Shown here: positions 1,861 through 12,674 of the stretch, piece by piece
Layout: each line of letters opens with the position of its first letter
Position numbering within the stretch: the stretch's first letter is position 1
Virus record (IMG/VR): IMGVR_UViG_3300041411_000102
Span: 64,001 to 78,284 of that record
Strand: one strand, 5' to 3'
DNA: 14,284 bases
From: a virus
Taxonomy: Duplodnaviria; Heunggongvirae; Uroviricota; Caudoviricetes
Program-made: the position numbers and the translations under genes
The notes under the pieces: generated by a model
What the model was told of the DNA's origin: nothing
What the model saw: only the letters and a program-made list of their open reading frames with translations
The model's database searches: none

Positions 1861-1973
1861 TTGCTTCACCTTGCTGATCTGATGGATTAATACTAGCACT
1901 GAGTGAGGAGGGATTGCAAGGACTATTTAGATTTGTTTGGAATAGTAGGTTAGTAAATATCTTCTGTGTGGGG

Positions 1974-2002
1974 TTGACAGGATTATTATTGACGTGTAGT
2001 CT
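1974..2002 (+). promoter_or_regulatory. sigma70-like promoter upstream of the polymerase-like gene
   Basis: TTGACA (1974-1979), 17-nt spacer, TAGTCT (1997-2002), in the divergent intergenic region. Confidence 0.5.
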
Positions 2003-2122
2003 TGTTGGTATTGGTGGTGAACAGAAAGCACCACATAAAAAGAAATTATTGCTGAGAGCCTTTATCCATAAGGCTTACAGACGATTATGGTCCACTATCT
2101 AGGAGGATGGAGTATATGATGT

Positions 2123-3469
2123 ATGAGGATTGATTTATGGAGTATAAGTAAGAAGGAGAGAAGTCAGATACAAACAAAGCTTACTCACTTTAACATTCAT
2201 TACAATCAAGGAAAGCAATATAAACATATAGTAGATGAACTGATGTCCTTGGATGTAGGTAAGAAAGAGGTATGGTGTGTTGTAACAAATATAGCTCGTG
2301 CTCTTAAATACAAAGCTATAGGTCTTTCTGTTCCTAGACAACGTAGTGCCTATTCTGGGAATGAACAGGGTGTGTCTCAGCGGCGTATGGTTATTCTTCT
2401 TGACAAGCTTGAGAAGGATGGTTACACTGATGACTTTATTGGGGGTGTTGTAGATTGGAAAGAGATGGATACAGTACAAAGCTGTATTATCTTCAAGCCA
2501 AAGCTGCTAGATCTCTTCAATGGTGTGGACGTCAGCAGTGAGCAAGATTACTTCAATGTTGTTGAGATTAAAGACAGAGAGACAAAAGAGCTTAAGTCTA
2601 AATCTGGTGTTCGGGGTGTCAAGATCATTACTGAGTATATGAATGCCTACAACCAACAATTAATGAATACAGAAATTAGTGATGAGACAGGTTTGCTGTC
2701 AGTCCAACAATACAAAAGAGTATTCTCTGATAATCTCCGTCAAGGCGGAAGGATTTATAACACTGCTGGAGGTGTTCAAGTGAAGAATGAGGAAGAACGT
2801 AGTTATATGAAGATTAATGGTGAAGAGATTGTTGAGTTAGATTTTAAGGCCATGCATCCAAGTCTTCTATACGAACAAGAGTATGAAGAGAACTCGGAAG
2901 ATATCGATGACTGGATTAAGAACAACTGGGGTGGCGACTATAATCCTTACGGTGCTCAGATGCCTTTCTTGAAAGTGAATCAGGATAAGGTAGAAGCATT
3001 TAAGAATACATTTGGTTTAGCTAAGTATGACCCAATTCGTAATTTGAATAAGCATGCACTTATGGTGAGCTTGAATGCAAAGACGTATCAGAAGGCATAC
3101 GTTCAGGTTACTGAAGAGTTTCGTGCAGACCAAGTTGCTTGGGATAAGCTCACTAAAGATGCGAAGTTTTATGGTATTGAATCTGTTGGTAACTTTCCGG
3201 GGCATACAGTTTGTCAGGCAGTGGCTGCACACAATAAACCCATTGCTAAATACTTCTTTAAGGATCAGGGCATTAAGATGCAGTATTTGGACAGTGAGAT
3301 TGTTGCAGATGTATTGAACCGACTGCTCATGGAAGATGAAGTACTGCTCCCCGAGCACGATAGTGTGATTGTTCGTGCGAGCATTAAAGATAAAGTTATG
3401 GGCTATATGCGTAGTGCTTATCTTGAGCTAATGGGATCTGATAAATTTTGTTATTTGGAGGTTAAATGA
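2123..3469 (+). CDS. minimal family-A / T7-RNAP-like polymerase-domain protein (448 aa)
   Basis: Motifs in the correct order: GGRIY (208-212, compare T7 RNAP DxxGRxY); motif A ELDFKAMHP (D240); motif B RNLNKHALMVSLN (R306, K310, M314; compare T7 RNAP RSVTKRSVMTLAY); motif C LPEHDSVIV (H412-D413-S414; compare IHDSF). No exonuclease domain recognised. Confidence 0.7.
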   Translation: MRIDLWSISKKERSQIQTKLTHFNIHYNQGKQYKHIVDELMSLDVGKKEVWCVVTNIARALKYKAIGLSVPRQRSAYSGNEQGVSQRRMVILLDKLEKDGYTDDFIGGVVDWKEMDTVQSCIIFKPKLLDLFNGVDVSSEQDYFNVVEIKDRETKELKSKSGVRGVKIITEYMNAYNQQLMNTEISDETGLLSVQQYKRVFSDNLRQGGRIYNTAGGVQVKNEEERSYMKINGEEIVELDFKAMHPSLLYEQEYEENSEDIDDWIKNNWGGDYNPYGAQMPFLKVNQDKVEAFKNTFGLAKYDPIRNLNKHALMVSLNAKTYQKAYVQVTEEFRADQVAWDKLTKDAKFYGIESVGNFPGHTVCQAVAAHNKPIAKYFFKDQGIKMQYLDSEIVADVLNRLLMEDEVLLPEHDSVIVRASIKDKVMGYMRSAYLELMGSDKFCYLEVK

Positions 3470-3738
3470 AATACGTAACTCAAGAGAAAGTAGACAAATA
3501 CAAGAAAGATTTCTGTAAAGACAAAGAGATTAATCTTGTTCATTTTGCTAATTGGTTTTGTGAAGGGGCCGTAACTACTATCAGCAACAAGCTGTATGAA
3601 CACCTAGAGTTTGATGGGTATTTAGTCCATAATTCATATGATTGGAAGAAGGATTGCCCTGTTTGGGAAATTAGAGATTCTGAAACTGATGAAGTAATTG
3701 ATAGCGTAGAATCTTTCCAAGAATGGTGTGTTAAATAA
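3466..3738 (+). CDS. hypothetical protein (90 aa)
   Basis: ATGA overlap with the polymerase-like gene; GGAGG RBS upstream. Confidence 0.8.
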   Translation: MKYVTQEKVDKYKKDFCKDKEINLVHFANWFCEGAVTTISNKLYEHLEFDGYLVHNSYDWKKDCPVWEIRDSETDEVIDSVESFQEWCVK

Positions 3739-3816: not shown

Positions 3817-4023
3817 ATGAGGTGTACAAGTTGCCAATCTGTCCTCACGCGTGGAGAACTGATGTTTGATCTTCCAGACGGAAACATGAATGATATCTGT
3901 TGGACATGCCAAGGTGTTATTGATCATCCAGAATTTTGTTCTACTAGAACTTATCAGTTTGAAGATATTACTGAAAAGCTTGTTGATGAAGATGTTACAC
4001 CAATTAAACCACTTAGTGATTAA
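3817..4023 (+). CDS. small putative zinc-ribbon protein (68 aa)
   Basis: CTSC...CWTC (two CxxC pairs), acidic tail, AAGGA RBS. Confidence 0.7.
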   Translation: MRCTSCQSVLTRGELMFDLPDGNMNDICWTCQGVIDHPEFCSTRTYQFEDITEKLVDEDVTPIKPLSD

Positions 4024-4056: not shown

Positions 4057-4065
4057 GTATTGCAA
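4038..4065 (-). promoter_or_regulatory. overlapping leftward sigma70-like promoter
   Basis: On the minus strand: TTGCAA (4065-4060), 16-nt spacer, TACAAT (4043-4038). Confidence 0.4.
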
Positions 4066-4123
4066 GCTACACAGAAGTGGCAGGAAAATTTAAAAAGATG
4101 TTCGGCCTTGAGCCACTTAAAGA

Positions 4124-4185
4124 AATGAACTGACGAGTTCTGAAATCCTCGGAATTAAACAAGCCTATCAATGTGTGTCTTTATT
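4124..4185 (+). ncRNA. type I hammerhead-like fold with a non-canonical core (UAAA instead of GAAA)
   Basis: CTGACGA core 4130-4136; 7-bp stem II; stem III ACA/TGT; GTC site 4177-4179; 6-bp stem I. The G12 position is T. Confidence 0.35.
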
Positions 4186-4273
4186 GATGCTCAAATGGTT
4201 TTAATACGGGGTAATGAATTATAAGTTTCACCAGCATAGCCGATAAGATTAAATTCTACATAAAGACTTTGCT

Positions 4274-4388
4274 TCCAAAAGCTAACGTTTTCTTCCTCTC
4301 TCCTCAACGTTAGCTCCTTAAAGATGCCTATCCCTCTCCGTAGGTTATCTTTCTGACCTTGATAGCGTGTAACGTACCTCTCCTTACG
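4274..4388. ncRNA. three-hairpin element with CTCTCC (plus) / GGAGAG (minus) loops; candidate sRNA
   Basis: Stems 4280-4289/4306-4315, 4327-4330/4341-4344 and 4373-4376/4385-4388. All three loops contain CTCTCC, and there are 7 GGA on the minus strand in about 110 nt. Confidence 0.45.
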
Positions 4389-4409
4389 GTATAGGCTTAG
4401 CACAGGGTC

Positions 4410-4476
4410 ATTTCTTAAAATTCCTGTAACTCATTAGTTATTACTGCAAGTCTGCTTGTCAGGAATTTTAAGAAAT
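4410..4476. repeat. perfect 17-bp inverted repeat enclosing two small hairpins
   Basis: ATTTCTTAAAATTCCTG (4410-4426) / CAGGAATTTTAAGAAAT (4460-4476); inner hairpins 4427-4440 and 4446-4459. Confidence 0.85.
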
Positions 4477-4535
4477 CAATTAAAGTAATATTTCTCATGT
4501 GTTCTATAGTGTATTTAATTACACACCTAGTCGGG

Positions 4536-4604
4536 TTCCAGTTAGTTCAGAGGCAGAACACTCCTTACGGAGAATAGTCGGCGAGTCAGGTAAGCCACTG
4601 GACA
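4536..4604 (+). pseudogene. degenerate tRNA-like element (tRNA-Val(UAC)-like remnant)
   Basis: Acceptor TCCAGT/ACTGGA; T8-A9; D arm GTTC-AGAGGCA-GAAC; shortened arm CTCC-TTAC-GGAG; T arm only GGC/GCC with no TTC; no CCA. Confidence 0.55.
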
Positions 4605-4661
4605 GAACACAGTAGAAATATTATTTATCCAAAACAACAATAATTCCAATGTAGGGACAAT

Positions 4662-8168: not shown

Positions 8169-9248
8169 ATGGCGATAACAAGGGTAGATGTTGTAGTACC
8201 AAAAGGAGTTTGGACAAACCTCTACACAGCTTCTGGTATTACAGTCGGTACACAAGTAGAAGTTCATAACAAGAGCACTTCATTCTGTAAAATTGCTACC
8301 TCAGCATTGGCTCCAACAACAGTAGATGGCTATCATCTCTCAGCATTTCCAGAGGCAGATCCGTTAGAGATTGCTCCCGGTGAAGTTGGGTTGTGGGCTT
8401 ACTCTCCTAACTCTGCTACCACTCTTTTAGTGCAAGAAAAAGCCCTTGAAAAGAGTAGCAACGGCTCTCTGTGGACTACAAACGTTCACCCTAAAGGAAT
8501 GGACTTTTATACAGCGGTTGGTCTTGGACTTGTACCGGGTGTTCGTAGGGTCACTGGTCTAGGTAGCAACCCGGATGTTGACCAAGCTTCCCTACCGGAA
8601 GACGTTTGGTCTGTTGGTGGGCTCTATCCATGGATGACAGCAGCTACGAGTCTTGAAGTAGTATCAACCAGTACGAGTGACGCGGCAGCCAGCGTAGGTG
8701 CTAGAACGATCACCATCTTTGGTCTTGATATCAACTATGTCGAAGTTAACCAAACTATTACACTGAACGGCACAACACCTGTTGCAGTTCCACTTCAATT
8801 GTTTCGAATTAACTCGATACTAATTATGAGTGCTGGCACTACCAAGGTTAACGTAGGCGATATTAACGTTCGTGATTCTGGTGGTGGCACAATCAGAGGA
8901 CAGATTCCAACAGGGTTTGGGTTGGCAAGACAAGCTGTTTATACAGTTCCAGCAGGTCACACGTTGAGCGTCCACTCAATACTATTCGCCCAGACAAGAT
9001 CCGGCGGGGTGGATAGGACTGTTACTATGGCTACAGTGTTCCAATCCCCACTAGGTTTCTACAGAATGCCCCTTGAAGTCGCCGTCAGCCAGGTCACACC
9101 TTACCGGCATGAGGGAGACCCCGGAATTATCGTAGCAGAGAAAACAGATTTTGCTATTAGGGTGTTGTCGGCATCAACTAACGACACCAGCGTTACGGCA
9201 GCCTTTCTCGGTACGATGTATTCTGCTGCAACATTAGCGTTAGTTTGA
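8169..9248 (+). CDS. two-domain uncharacterised phage protein, probably virion-associated (359 aa)
   Basis: The N-terminal ~90-aa domain is shared with 9256..9540. The C-terminal beta-rich domain (GSNPDVD...EDVW...GGLYPW...GARTITIFGLD...LNGTTPV...YTVPAGHT) is of a type I recall from many uncharacterised phage proteins. GGGAG RBS. Confidence 0.75.
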   Translation: MAITRVDVVVPKGVWTNLYTASGITVGTQVEVHNKSTSFCKIATSALAPTTVDGYHLSAFPEADPLEIAPGEVGLWAYSPNSATTLLVQEKALEKSSNGSLWTTNVHPKGMDFYTAVGLGLVPGVRRVTGLGSNPDVDQASLPEDVWSVGGLYPWMTAATSLEVVSTSTSDAAASVGARTITIFGLDINYVEVNQTITLNGTTPVAVPLQLFRINSILIMSAGTTKVNVGDINVRDSGGGTIRGQIPTGFGLARQAVYTVPAGHTLSVHSILFAQTRSGGVDRTVTMATVFQSPLGFYRMPLEVAVSQVTPYRHEGDPGIIVAEKTDFAIRVLSASTNDTSVTAAFLGTMYSAATLALV

Positions 9249-9255
9249 GGTGTCT

Positions 9256-9540
9256 ATGGAAAATGTAATAGTAATTTCTGGGGATACAAAAGAAGACGTA
9301 ATTCTTTCTGGATTGGAGTGGGAGAATGCCTATGGGCTTTCAGCCATTACTCCCGGTACTGCGATCACTATCCAAAACAAGACTACAGATTATCTCTATG
9401 TATTTGTTAAATCTGAAAAACCTCCTGTTGAAATTAGTGATGGTATTAAGATAGCAGTAGGTCAGTCTGCTCAAGTCGCCGCCTCCCAATCAGGATGTTG
9501 GCTGAGTGGGTATGGTAGGGTGAATATTAGAGGTACATAG
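9256..9540 (+). CDS. small beta-rich protein, stand-alone copy of the N-terminal domain of 8169..9248 (94 aa)
   Basis: GAGG RBS 5 nt before ATG 9256 (the track starts at GTG 9250). Shared pattern WxNxYxxSxITxGT...NK...P...DG...GxW. Confidence 0.75.
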   Translation: MENVIVISGDTKEDVILSGLEWENAYGLSAITPGTAITIQNKTTDYLYVFVKSEKPPVEISDGIKIAVGQSAQVAASQSGCWLSGYGRVNIRGT

Positions 9541-10154: not shown

Positions 10155-11228
10155 TTGAATTATAAGAAAGTTTATCTTCAGTTAATGGAGAAAGGTAGAA
10201 CAAGATCTTTAGACAAACGTGAATACGAAGGCTACTTTGAAAAGCACCATGTCCTTCCTCGCTGTATGGGAGGAAGTAATGATAAAAGTAATCTTGTACT
10301 TCTGACTGGTCGTGAACATTTTATGGCTCATATGCTCCTTTGGAAAGCTTATCCTTCCAATGGGAGTTTTGCGTTTGCAGCCACATTTATGAGTAACCGC
10401 AAAGTCTGTAAAGTTAATTCGTATCTATATGAATATCTAAAAGCTGATTCCGCAAAGAAGATTTCTGAAGCCACGTCAGGAAAAAGAGTTAAAGATCTTT
10501 TAGGTCAAAAATTTACAAAGCTTACTGTAGTTGAGCAAGCTGACTTTTATTATTCAAGTACCGGAGCCAAGCAAGCCACTTGGGTTTGTGAATGTGATTG
10601 TGGAATCTTTACTACGGTAGTTGCTGGCAGTTTAACTTCAAAGAATACTCAATCTTGTGGTTGTTTAGTTTCTGAATCTGGGAAAGCTCGCATTGGTGAA
10701 AATAATCACATGTGGGGTAAGAAACATACAGAAGAAACCAAAGAGAAGTTTAAATCTAGAAATTATTTAAAGGGTGAGAATCACCCATTCTTTGGCATGA
10801 AGTTCTCTGAAGAAACCTGTAAAAAGATGAGTGAAGCGCGTAAAGGTATTGGTTGGACTGAAGAAACTAGAGCAACTATGATGAAGTCAATGCGATATGG
10901 TGAAGATCATCATATGTTTGGTAAATCACATCCACCAGAACTTCTTAAACAAATTTCTGAATCTTTAAAAGCACGGGATCAAAAGCCTTGGGAAAATGTA
11001 GCCACACAAACTGAAGAGTCTATGCTTAAGTGGTCAATGTGTGATTACTATTATGATCTTTGGGTTACATTTGATAAACCCGGCCTTAAAGTTCTAACTA
11101 AAATTTATAATCAAACCCACAATGATGATGTTAGTTTATCGTTCTTCACTAACCCTAGACTTAAATGGCTAGATGGTTGGATTCCTCAAGAAGATCCTAA
11201 GTGGGTAGAATTTTCTAAGGGATTTTAA
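10155..11228 (+). CDS. free-standing HNH homing endonuclease, MobE-like N-terminus with a Cys domain and NUMOD3-like repeats (357 aa)
   Basis: TTG start. MNYKKVY...EKHHVLPRCMGGSNDKSNLVLLTGREHFMAHMLLWK resembles T4 MobE. It is followed by GQKFTKLTV...WVCECDCG...SCGC and 3-4 repeats of the type GExHxxxGKxHxEET. Confidence 0.88.
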   Translation: MNYKKVYLQLMEKGRTRSLDKREYEGYFEKHHVLPRCMGGSNDKSNLVLLTGREHFMAHMLLWKAYPSNGSFAFAATFMSNRKVCKVNSYLYEYLKADSAKKISEATSGKRVKDLLGQKFTKLTVVEQADFYYSSTGAKQATWVCECDCGIFTTVVAGSLTSKNTQSCGCLVSESGKARIGENNHMWGKKHTEETKEKFKSRNYLKGENHPFFGMKFSEETCKKMSEARKGIGWTEETRATMMKSMRYGEDHHMFGKSHPPELLKQISESLKARDQKPWENVATQTEESMLKWSMCDYYYDLWVTFDKPGLKVLTKIYNQTHNDDVSLSFFTNPRLKWLDGWIPQEDPKWVEFSKGF

Positions 11229-12674
11229 ATGACAGAAAAGAAACTACCGGGGCCATGTTCATTACGTCAAAGTATGTACATCGCCTCGGAGGCTGACGTA
11301 ACCCTATTCGGTGGCGCTGCCGCAAGCGGAAAAAGTGAAATTGGCGTTATTGACTTCCTGAAGTATACAGATACTCCTAATTTCATTGGTGTAATGACTC
11401 GTCGAACCACCCCACAACTTAATGGTCCGGGTGGATTGCTAACTAAATGTAAGCGTGTCTTTAGTCAAGCATACAAGCCAGATGAATATACTTGGAGAGC
11501 GAAGGATGGTAAGTTCGTTTTCCATAATTCCGGTGCTGAAATCTATCTCAAGCACTTTGAGAATGATGCAGCAGACGTAAACTGGCAAGGATCTGAGGCA
11601 AATCTTTTCTATATAGATGAGGGTACGCAATATACGATGTATATGATTCAATATATCATGTCTCGTATGCGTAATCCCTCTTGCCCCTCAATCAAACCTC
11701 ACCTAAAAATCACCTGCAATCCTGATGCCGACCACGGCCTTCGTAAGTGGGTAGAACCTTATCTGCAAGAAGATGGTACTCCAGACCGTTCAAAAGATGG
11801 AATGTTGAGATACTTTTCTTTCATGGATGGTGACTTTGTTTGGGCGGATACTAAAGAACAACTTCTAGCCGAGTATGGTGTTAGAGAGCAAGATGCTCTA
11901 TCTTTTACCTTCATTAGTGCTAACGTTTATGACAACAAAATTGTAGAAGAAGTTAACCCTAAGTATGTTGCTTGGCTCAAAGGTCTTCGTGGCACTGAAC
12001 GAAAAAGATTGCTAGAAGGCAATTGGTTCGTAAGGGAAAGTGCAGCAGGATTTATGAAAAAAGAATTCTGTGGCAAAGTTAATTTATTTGACAAAGAGAT
12101 TATATCTTATTGTCGTGCGTGGGATATAGCCGGTTCGATCCCCAGTGAGGCACTACCAAATCCTGACTGGACTGCTGGTGTTCTTATAGGGAAGACAAAA
12201 CAAGGTCGTTATATTGTAATTGACGTTGTTAGGTTTCGTGCAAGATTTGGCGAAGTTATGGCAAAGATAATTGAGACTGCTGGGTCAGATCCTGATGGTA
12301 CTCAAATTATACTGCCACAAGAACCGGGCCAAGCTGGGAAGGCTGCCGGACAAATGATGATTAAAGAACTTCTGTCGGAAGGTTTCTACGCAAGAATGCG
12401 TCCTTCTAACAAGAGCAAGATTATCAGATTCCAACCATTCGCAGCCGCTGCTGAAGCTGGTCTTGTCGACTATATTGAAGCACCTTGGACAGACACTTAT
12501 TTCGATGAGTTGGAAAGTTTCGATGGGAGCCGTAAGAACAAGGATGACCAAGTGGACGCCACAAGCGATGCATTTATCACCCTTGCTCAGAAGTTACAAA
12601 TTCCAAACTTCTCATCCGGCCTACTCTCCGCAAACTTAACTCAATCTAACCCCTTCCTTAATGCAGGAGCTTAA
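11229..12674 (+). CDS. terL: terminase large subunit (481 aa)
   Basis: Walker A GGAAASGKS, Walker B FYIDEG, coupling motif TCNP, RNase-H-like nuclease RAWDIA and DDQVDATSDAF; uninterrupted. Confidence 0.95.
   Translation: MTEKKLPGPCSLRQSMYIASEADVTLFGGAAASGKSEIGVIDFLKYTDTPNFIGVMTRRTTPQLNGPGGLLTKCKRVFSQAYKPDEYTWRAKDGKFVFHNSGAEIYLKHFENDAADVNWQGSEANLFYIDEGTQYTMYMIQYIMSRMRNPSCPSIKPHLKITCNPDADHGLRKWVEPYLQEDGTPDRSKDGMLRYFSFMDGDFVWADTKEQLLAEYGVREQDALSFTFISANVYDNKIVEEVNPKYVAWLKGLRGTERKRLLEGNWFVRESAAGFMKKEFCGKVNLFDKEIISYCRAWDIAGSIPSEALPNPDWTAGVLIGKTKQGRYIVIDVVRFRARFGEVMAKIIETAGSDPDGTQIILPQEPGQAGKAAGQMMIKELLSEGFYARMRPSNKSKIIRFQPFAAAAEAGLVDYIEAPWTDTYFDELESFDGSRKNKDDQVDATSDAFITLAQKLQIPNFSSGLLSANLTQSNPFLNAGA

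Follow-up and report, generated by a model that had tools for sequence, protein, structure and literature searches.

The gene analysed here has its closest described counterparts in two groups of minimal polymerases. The first, divPolA2, was named by Yutin, Tolstoy, Mutz, Wolf, Krupovic and Koonin (2024; Virol J 21:200; PMC11348598), an account on which we draw in part here and below: it is a variant of PolA without an exonuclease and without a normal thumb, it carries an unassigned N-terminal domain, and it was first found in 110 barbaviruses beside a PolB, at times as 2–3 paralogues, for which the authors proposed a role either as a repair DNA polymerase or as an RNA polymerase (RNAP). The second, TV-Pol, has a core built around a β-hairpin arginine, two aspartates and an RxxxK motif, with an all-helical N-terminal domain, and one of its elements, from Microcystis phage Ma-LMM01, was described in a transposase setting (Iyer, Abhiman and Aravind, 2008; PMC2579912). 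A TV-Pol member, CcPol, was shown experimentally to be, together with its partner MP, a primer-independent DNA synthesiser (bioRxiv 10.1101/2022.12.02.518924). Our subject is the open frame P0001 (2123..3469, plus strand, 448 amino acids [aa]) in a window of 14,284 nucleotides (nt), the closing 14.3 kb of a viral contig that measures 78,284 bp (IMG/VR record IMGVR_UViG_3300041411_000102, positions 64,001 to 78,284). P0001 is an intact member of divPolA2, a family that is already published and so not new; what the present analysis adds is a winged-helix-like assignment of its N-terminal domain, a profile link to TV-Pol, a second paralogue in the same genome and a leader element private to the two genes.

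P0001 fits phrog_4756, a family listed as of 'unknown function', from end to end (E 1e-78). Membership in divPolA2 follows from the profile match to a barbavirus protein: the family profile, A1, aligns with Barba21A gp034 over 377 columns (hhalign, prob 99.8, E 4.6e-28), with the barbavirus motifs GGRVF, DYSQLWPR, RDLAKxxLMxxFNA and HDS all in register. ORF100 of phage ICP1 (555 aa) also belongs to the family. In tblastn P0001 matched 115 Rheinheimera phage records, and the family was found in phages of Vibrio (including ICP1), Aeromonas, Pseudoalteromonas, Shewanella, Rheinheimera and Pseudomonas; the closest cultured relative of the gene is in Pseudomonas phage vB_PsaM_M1 (M1, filed under Ounavirinae), whose orthologue, annotated as 'DNA polymerase', shares 62% identity with P0001. 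The whole window found no match in the phage collection by megablast. Standard family libraries do not recognise these proteins: Pfam (E<=0.01) and NCBIfam gave no family for P0001 or for the further members scanned, and PF00476 (DNA_pol_A) matched neither P0001 nor 12 other members, while it does match the real PolA of the same phage. Sequence searches of the PDB with the single P0001 sequence and with the shallow profile A1 returned chance-level matches only. One Atlas cluster of the family carries the automatic name 'DNA-directed RNA polymerase family protein', and our literature search found no later paper that uses the name divPolA2.

The polymerase motifs lie at the positions and in the order in which the initial annotation had read them from the sequence, and their conservation was counted over 143 diverse representatives of the family in one alignment. 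GGRIY (aa 208–212, 2744..2758) is the β-hairpin arginine motif, the T/DxxGR of family A, with G209 kept in 139/143, R210 in 142/143 and Y212 in 126/143. It is followed by motif A, ELDFKAMHP (aa 238–246, 2834..2860), with the catalytic D240 in all 143 and H245 in 135, by motif B on the O-helix (aa 306–318, 3038..3076), where R306 (141/143) and K310 (143/143) are joined by M314 and N318, and by motif C, HDS (aa 412–414, 3356..3364), at the turn of a hairpin, with H412 and D413 in every representative and S414 in 119/143. The check proposed earlier for D240, R306, K310 and D413 is thus borne out, three of the four being invariant. Altogether R226, D240, Y276, K310, H412 and D413 occur without exception, at least 90% of the representatives share G209, R210, Q219, H245, R306, Q387, D390 and S391, and the residues that bind metal and triphosphate are all kept; position 314 is L in 100 and M in 39. 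Since a 90%-clustered database holds 76 homologues and an exhaustive profile search yields 8,767 clusters (50% identity) at E<=1e-3 (6,034 at E<=1e-10), with these residues invariant across the representatives, the pattern is far beyond chance. It is the pattern of an active enzyme and not of a relic, and P0001 is probably active.

The AlphaFold2 model of P0001, made from an alignment of 30 sequences, has a pLDDT (predicted local distance difference test) of 92.4 and a pTM (predicted template modelling score) of 0.84. D240 is placed at the end of strand 234–241 and H412-D413 within the 409–418 β-hairpin, which in the model is the classic geometry of motifs A and C. Foldseek matched the model to 84 PDB chains at E<=1e-3, and among the 50 listed of these 84 nearly all are of Pol I, Pol theta, Pol nu or apicoplast Pol type, together with human mitochondrial RNAP (mtRNAP). 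In a VIA-align structure search of 48,161 chains the family-A DNA polymerases scored Z 13.2–10, with the apicoplast Pol at 13.2 and Aquifex Pol I at 12.5, and the RNA polymerases followed at 12.2 for yeast mtRNAP (root-mean-square deviation 3.7), 10.9 for T7 RNAP and 6.9 for N4 RNAPII. The model and both searches therefore agree with the earlier view of a minimal family-A palm/fingers polymerase. The matches mostly cover residues 142–448 (2546..3466), which form the core of vestigial thumb, palm and fingers; with core matches beginning mostly at residue 142 of a 448-aa protein, the proposed absence of an exonuclease holds as well. The predicted thumb appears vestigial, reduced to a single helix (166–181) that separates the N-terminal domain from the GGR hairpin, as judged from secondary structure rather than from superposition. 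As modelled, the fold matches DNA and RNA polymerases equally well, and because both classes score alike in VIA-align it cannot tell one from the other.

The N-terminal domain (aa 1–140, 2123..2542), which includes the stretch VSQRRMVILLDKLEKDGY at aa 84–101, had been suspected to resemble a winged helix. Folded separately, residues 1–146 reach a pLDDT of 88.5. The scores in the structure searches are modest (best VIA-align Z 6.0; best Foldseek match a MarR at E 0.055), yet almost all of the top 50 VIA-align matches are winged-helix proteins, among them MarR, SarA, CodY, Crp, Fur, PadR, the winged-helix domain of ORC (ORC-WH) and kleisin-binding winged helices. We consider the predicted domain winged-helix-like, with moderate support.

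By sequence profile, the nearest relative of divPolA2 is the TV-Pol group, a kinship that had earlier been suspected and is now moderately supported. A search with profile A1 gave a weak match to Ma-LMM01 ORF30, which adjoins two transposase genes. We then compared profile A2, of ORF30 and six homologues, with the shallow A1, for which the match reached E 0.012 only, and with A3, a deep divPolA2 profile of the 143 sequences, for which it reached E 8e-6 (prob 83.7) over 172 columns that begin at GGR, take in motifs A and B and end with motif C. The controls, A3 against T7 RNAP (E 0.32, in an unrelated stretch) and A3 against the phage's own PolA (E 0.14), remained far behind. Two oddities are common to divPolA2 and the ORF30 clade, a histidine five residues after the motif A aspartate (D+5) and an asparagine eight residues after the motif B lysine (K+8). 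The link is of moderate strength because it covers one TV-Pol clade and the controls are single sequences; on this footing divPolA2 is probably best seen as a thumb-less offshoot or sister of TV-Pol.

The residues that select the sugar bear on what the enzyme makes. The steric gate is Glu710 in Pol I, with Gly542 as its counterpart in T7-type RNAPs, and motif B carries a tyrosine in both, Tyr766 in Pol I and Tyr639 in T7 RNAP. The motif A of Klenow is DYSQIELR, and since the barbavirus DYSQLWPR is colinear with it, H245 falls at the Glu710/Gly542 position; this equivalence, like that of N318 with Tyr766/Tyr639, comes from motif alignment by eye rather than from superposition. A histidine thus occupies the gate in 135 of the 143 representatives, and position 318 is N in 120, Y in 12 and F in 11, in agreement with the earlier remark that Asn318 sits where motif B normally has tyrosine. 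The bulky histidine leans towards dNTPs, while HDS and the Met/Leu at K+4 resemble T7 RNAP, so that the sequence points both ways. The original description of the motifs as T7-RNAP-style has consequently found no specific support: DNA and RNA polymerases match the fold equally, the gate has His and not Gly, neither the Pfam RNA_pol nor the DNA_pol_A family matches, and the genome shows no repeated promoter. A genome scan with PF00940 gave nothing at E<=1, though control genomes were equally silent.

The phage's own 714-aa PolA, which includes a domain of exonuclease type, is encoded at genome 23.7–27.6 kb next to a Toprim-DnaB primase-helicase of 569 aa, and RNR and ThyX genes accompany the two. 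Because the phage has its own replicase and primase-helicase, the P0001 enzyme is accessory. P0001 lies at genome 66.1 kb, ~40 kb from these genes, and so is indeed outside any replication module, as the initial annotation had it. Its description as stand-alone needs a proviso, in that a second divPolA2 paralogue is present at genome 33300-34625 (plus strand, 441 aa; L008:13300-14625, L008 being a stretch of the same genome). This protein matches phrog_4756 at E 1.6e-49 and profile A1 at E 4.5e-23 (hhalign) and is 21% identical to P0001; the two paralogues are old. The map of open reading frames (ORFs) shows divergent strand switches at ~31–33 kb and ~65.9 kb, with one paralogue just inside the rightward arm of each, where it is the first long gene past the switch. 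The arrangement recurs in M1, Barba21A and four metagenomic relatives, and in 8 of 8 loci taken together the polymerase gene comes no later than second past a divergent junction; outside this set, in ICP1, it is sixth. Its neighbours in the window, M1, Barba21A, ICP1 and the four metagenomic loci are small unannotated early genes. GC-skew minima coincide with both paralogues and are confounded with gene orientation, and the skew was for this reason rejected as an origin marker. A further member, of 578 aa with a ~100-aa C-terminal extension, is found in the bacterial chromosome AP018681.1 (L047:6001-7737), in a prophage-like early region, with an anti-repressor-like gene on one side, an HNH endonuclease and head protease on the other and no further large early gene in between; in the 13.7 kb examined there it was the sole replication gene recognised.

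Upstream of P0001 we read a putative sigma-70-type promoter (1974..2002, plus strand), with TTGACA at 1974–1979, a 17-nt spacer and TAGTCT at 1997–2002, preceded by GGGG. The block GGGGTTGACAGG-N17-TAnnnT aligns in 8 related loci, whose proteins are 57–94% identical to P0001, and probably functions as a promoter. Between it and the gene lies a conserved leader (2032..2103, plus strand), seen in alignments and described by a covariance model, R1. It consists of an A-rich stretch, a two-part hairpin (2052–2080), a spacer of ~8 nt and the TGGTYSACTATCT box (2088–2100), which reads TGGTCCACTATCT in the window, has the general form TGGT(T/C)(G/C)ACTATCT and here abuts the Shine-Dalgarno sequence AGGAGGA (2101–2107). 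The upstream regions still align for genes whose proteins are 31–94% identical, and in other lineages an extra conserved 45–80 nt separates the box from the start codon. The TTGACT within the box of these long-leader lineages was considered as the -35 element of a second promoter and dropped, since 22–28 nt and not 16–19 lead to the AT-rich block. A 62-aa ORF with a TTG start (1914–2102, plus strand) overlies the promoter and leader; it is uncalled in related contigs and is probably no gene.

In the 78-kb genome the leader element stands only before the two paralogues: R1 found exactly two sites, one in front of each gene, the hairpin copy of the second being at L008:13207-13279. It found none before the Barba or ICP1 genes. 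R1 scores 34–70 bits on the plus strand and 18–30 bits on the minus strand, and many stem positions of the hairpin are U-G on the sense strand, from which we suggest that the signal resides in the sense strand or in the mRNA. The evidence for the hairpin itself comes from this strand asymmetry and from single-sequence folds, where it appears with z <= -2 (down to -4.5) in 12/20 copies; RNAalifold on the sequence alignment of the leader gave 4 weak pairs only, and the register is ambiguous, as a slide by +1 pairs equally well. The box as such is not over-represented in the genome (16 ACTATCT against ~15 expected), and a search for a T7-style promoter regulon found no 14-mer in at least three copies and no enriched 8–9-mer upstream of genes.

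Our favoured, though tentative, reading is that P0001 is a site-specific initiating or priming polymerase for phage replication. The enzyme would be expressed early from the host-type promoter, its winged helix would bring the polymerase core to a single defined site and not to a multitude, and nucleic-acid synthesis would start there, most likely to make or elongate the first primer for replication of the phage DNA. The place would be at or near the divergent early region, and the leader element would be either that site or an operator by which the enzyme limits its own synthesis. Initiation at a single place is suggested by several features taken together: the head reads sequence, the thumb-less core is fit for short products, the family is kin to TV-Pol, the gene is expressed early, and each paralogue has an element of its own that stands nowhere else in the 78 kb. 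The lack of any repeated promoter-like word argues against a transcription regime of the T7 style. The prophage-like setting of the AP018681.1 member as a context for priming is suggestive only. A number of observations speak against the proposal. The phage already has a primase and on paper could do without P0001 in this role. In contrast to the TV-Pol and CcPol contexts, no linked helicase, transposase or OB-fold partner was recognised by sequence. The GC-skew minima at the paralogues merely mirror gene orientation, and iterons were not found at either junction, where there are only short two-copy repeats. Covariation in the hairpin is not significant (179/500 shuffles of the model-fitted alignment reached the observed score), and the U-G pairs and the location in a transcribed leader would suit a plain RNA operator equally. 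In a bolder version, which we hold to be doubtful, divPolA2 would be a self-contained cis-acting initiator-polymerase, in which the winged helix reads the element, the core starts de novo and each paralogue serves one origin without a separate initiator.

The similarity of the fold to yeast mtRNAP (Z 12.2) and T7 RNAP (Z 10.9), which match as well as DNA polymerases do, also fits a minimal single-subunit RNAP for a set of phage genes, whose winged helix reads a promoter and whose paralogues represent two promoter classes. The T7-like HDS, GRxY and Met/Leu at K+4, the early position of the gene, the automatic Atlas name and the fact that Yutin et al. (2024; PMC11348598) raise this option all point the same way. 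Such an enzyme should nevertheless have its promoters, and the genome holds no 14-mer repeated at least three times and no enriched 8–9-nt upstream word, the box and element being unique to the polymerase leaders; moreover, His stands in 135/143 representatives where T7-type enzymes have Gly, most members lack an equivalent of Tyr639, PF00940 does not match and by profile TV-Pol is closer than T7 RNAP, so that we regard this explanation as rather unlikely. The bulky steric-gate residue and the best Foldseek matches, of Pol I, Pol theta and Pol nu type, would instead suit an exonuclease-free DNA polymerase without site specificity, acting in repair, gap filling, lesion bypass or recombination-dependent synthesis, with the leader as a translational operator only. 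It is the other option listed by Yutin et al. (2024; PMC11348598), and the hairpin beside the Shine-Dalgarno sequence may recall the T4 gp43 operator. It would be odd, however, for an enzyme of general repair to have a winged-helix head that reads sequence and to occur as two divergent paralogues, no repair genes are linked, and without a thumb synthesis should be short and distributive; we think this explanation unlikely. The thumb-less core is equally suited to short products of another kind, a small non-genomic nucleic acid made early as a decoy, signal or counter-defence product, and the location of the gene among fast-evolving small early genes in variable neighbourhoods, together with a paralogue number that varies among phages (PMC11348598), would agree with this. 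But the strict template-type active site is kept (RxxxK, Q219, Q387), and no link to a known defence or anti-defence gene was seen, albeit with no dedicated search of a defence library, and such a role is in our view very unlikely. That P0001 descends from a polymerase but is now inactive, structural or confined to DNA binding is hardly credible: the lack of a Pfam match is all that speaks for it, against the invariance of D240, K310, H412 and D413 and the near invariance of R210 and R306 across the 143 clusters.

Downstream of the polymerase, a 90-aa ORF (3466..3738, plus strand) overlaps its stop codon (ATGA). It has no Pfam or PHROG family and does not look like a conserved partner of the polymerase: in a sequence-level comparison no BLAST relative was found among the ORFs downstream of 24 related polymerase genes. 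A 68-aa Cys-rich, zinc-ribbon-like ORF (CxxC...CxxC; 3817–4023, plus strand) follows and is kept at 40–86% identity in the related loci L015, L020, L021 and L035, and M1 has a protein annotated as zinc-ribbon nearby. The next ~570 nt (4094–4661) are gene-free and low in G+C, with a 17-bp inverted repeat (about 4410–4426 and 4461–4477); at a comparable place M1 has three tRNA genes, and tRNA and Rfam scans of the window, this stretch included, were blank. The region 4060–4660 had been put forward as a template for the polymerase, a suggestion we abandon: the non-coding stretch is not conserved beside the polymerase genes of the related loci compared and was rejected as a conserved partner or template. 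By Pfam and PHROG, other genes of the contig code for tail fibres, a homing endonuclease, a large terminase and a Mu-type portal. The endonuclease gene, of NUMOD3/HNH type (10155–11228, plus strand), ends one base before the large terminase (11229–12674), the same arrangement as in M1, and another two genes for HNH endonucleases lie to either side of the PolA/primase module, on the minus strand (L008:860-1564 and L008:7628-8389). The first 90 aa of a 359-aa protein (8169–9248, plus strand) and the adjacent 96-aa protein (9250–9540, plus strand) both match phrog_4770, the pair being a tandem partial duplication.

If it were clear which nucleic acid divPolA2 makes and from which point, we would better understand the onset of replication or transcription in many marine and soil myoviruses. 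The window offers several handles for this, namely the candidate target 2032–2103, the two paralogues and the unusual selectivity residues H245 and N318. Such knowledge would also help to define the minimal working core of the Pol I/T7 RNAP fold and could provide a compact enzyme for biotechnology. Were the initiator-polymerase idea true, it would be a new mechanism of origin firing, and among polymerases of the family-A fold that start de novo at a specific sequence this one would be the smallest.

Compared with the published divPolA2 proteins, P0001 has the same intact PolA-like palm motifs, no exonuclease, no canonical thumb and an extra N-terminal globular domain, and it is likewise encoded besides a regular DNA polymerase, with a paralogue in the same genome. 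It differs in that its phage is Felix-O1-like with a PolA replicase, while barbaviruses have PolB, in that the N-terminal domain is winged-helix-like, where the part of the paper used here reports no detectable similarity to known domains, and in that the promoter-leader element and the position at a junction are absent from that part of the account (PMC11348598). With TV-Pol it shares the minimal family-A core and the lack of a nuclease domain. The thumb of TV-Pol is, however, a two-helix antiparallel coiled coil and that of P0001, as modelled, one short helix (166–181), a reduction to a single helix likewise reported across divPolA2 (PMC11348598); the N-terminal domain is winged-helix-like and not all-helical, and no D5-like helicase, resolvase, integrase or transposase stands beside the divPolA2 genes of the window, M1, Barba21A, ICP1 and the four metagenomic loci. 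A search for longer fused forms of the family was blank, which is weak evidence. As for CcPol-MP, the SCCmec primase, a comparison by sequence behind 24 related polymerase genes found no conserved downstream gene of the MP type with its OB fold.

Family-A DNA polymerases have the fold in common with P0001 and differ from it in the PF00476 match, the Glu gate and the motif B of Tyr766 type, all of which it lacks. T7-type RNAPs share the palm and fingers (Z 12.2, 10.9 and 6.9) as well as HDS, GRxY and Met/Leu at K+4; P0001 is half their size, without the N-terminal promoter-binding domain and the specificity loop, its family has His for Gly542 and, in most members, Asn for Tyr639, and it has no Pfam or profile match to them and no promoter regulon. 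In T4 and RB69 the gp43 polymerase has a translational operator, a hairpin just ahead of the Shine-Dalgarno sequence of its own gene, and P0001 similarly has a hairpin and a single-stranded box in its own leader, right before the Shine-Dalgarno sequence, although gp43 is of an unrelated polymerase family and in other divPolA2 lineages the box is 45–80 nt from the start codon. For the priming role that we tentatively favour, the analogues would be primases of the TV-Pol/CcPol type, T7 RNAP, which primes the T7 origin beside its own gene from the adjoining promoters phi1.1A/B, and Pol I, which acts at the ColE1 origin.

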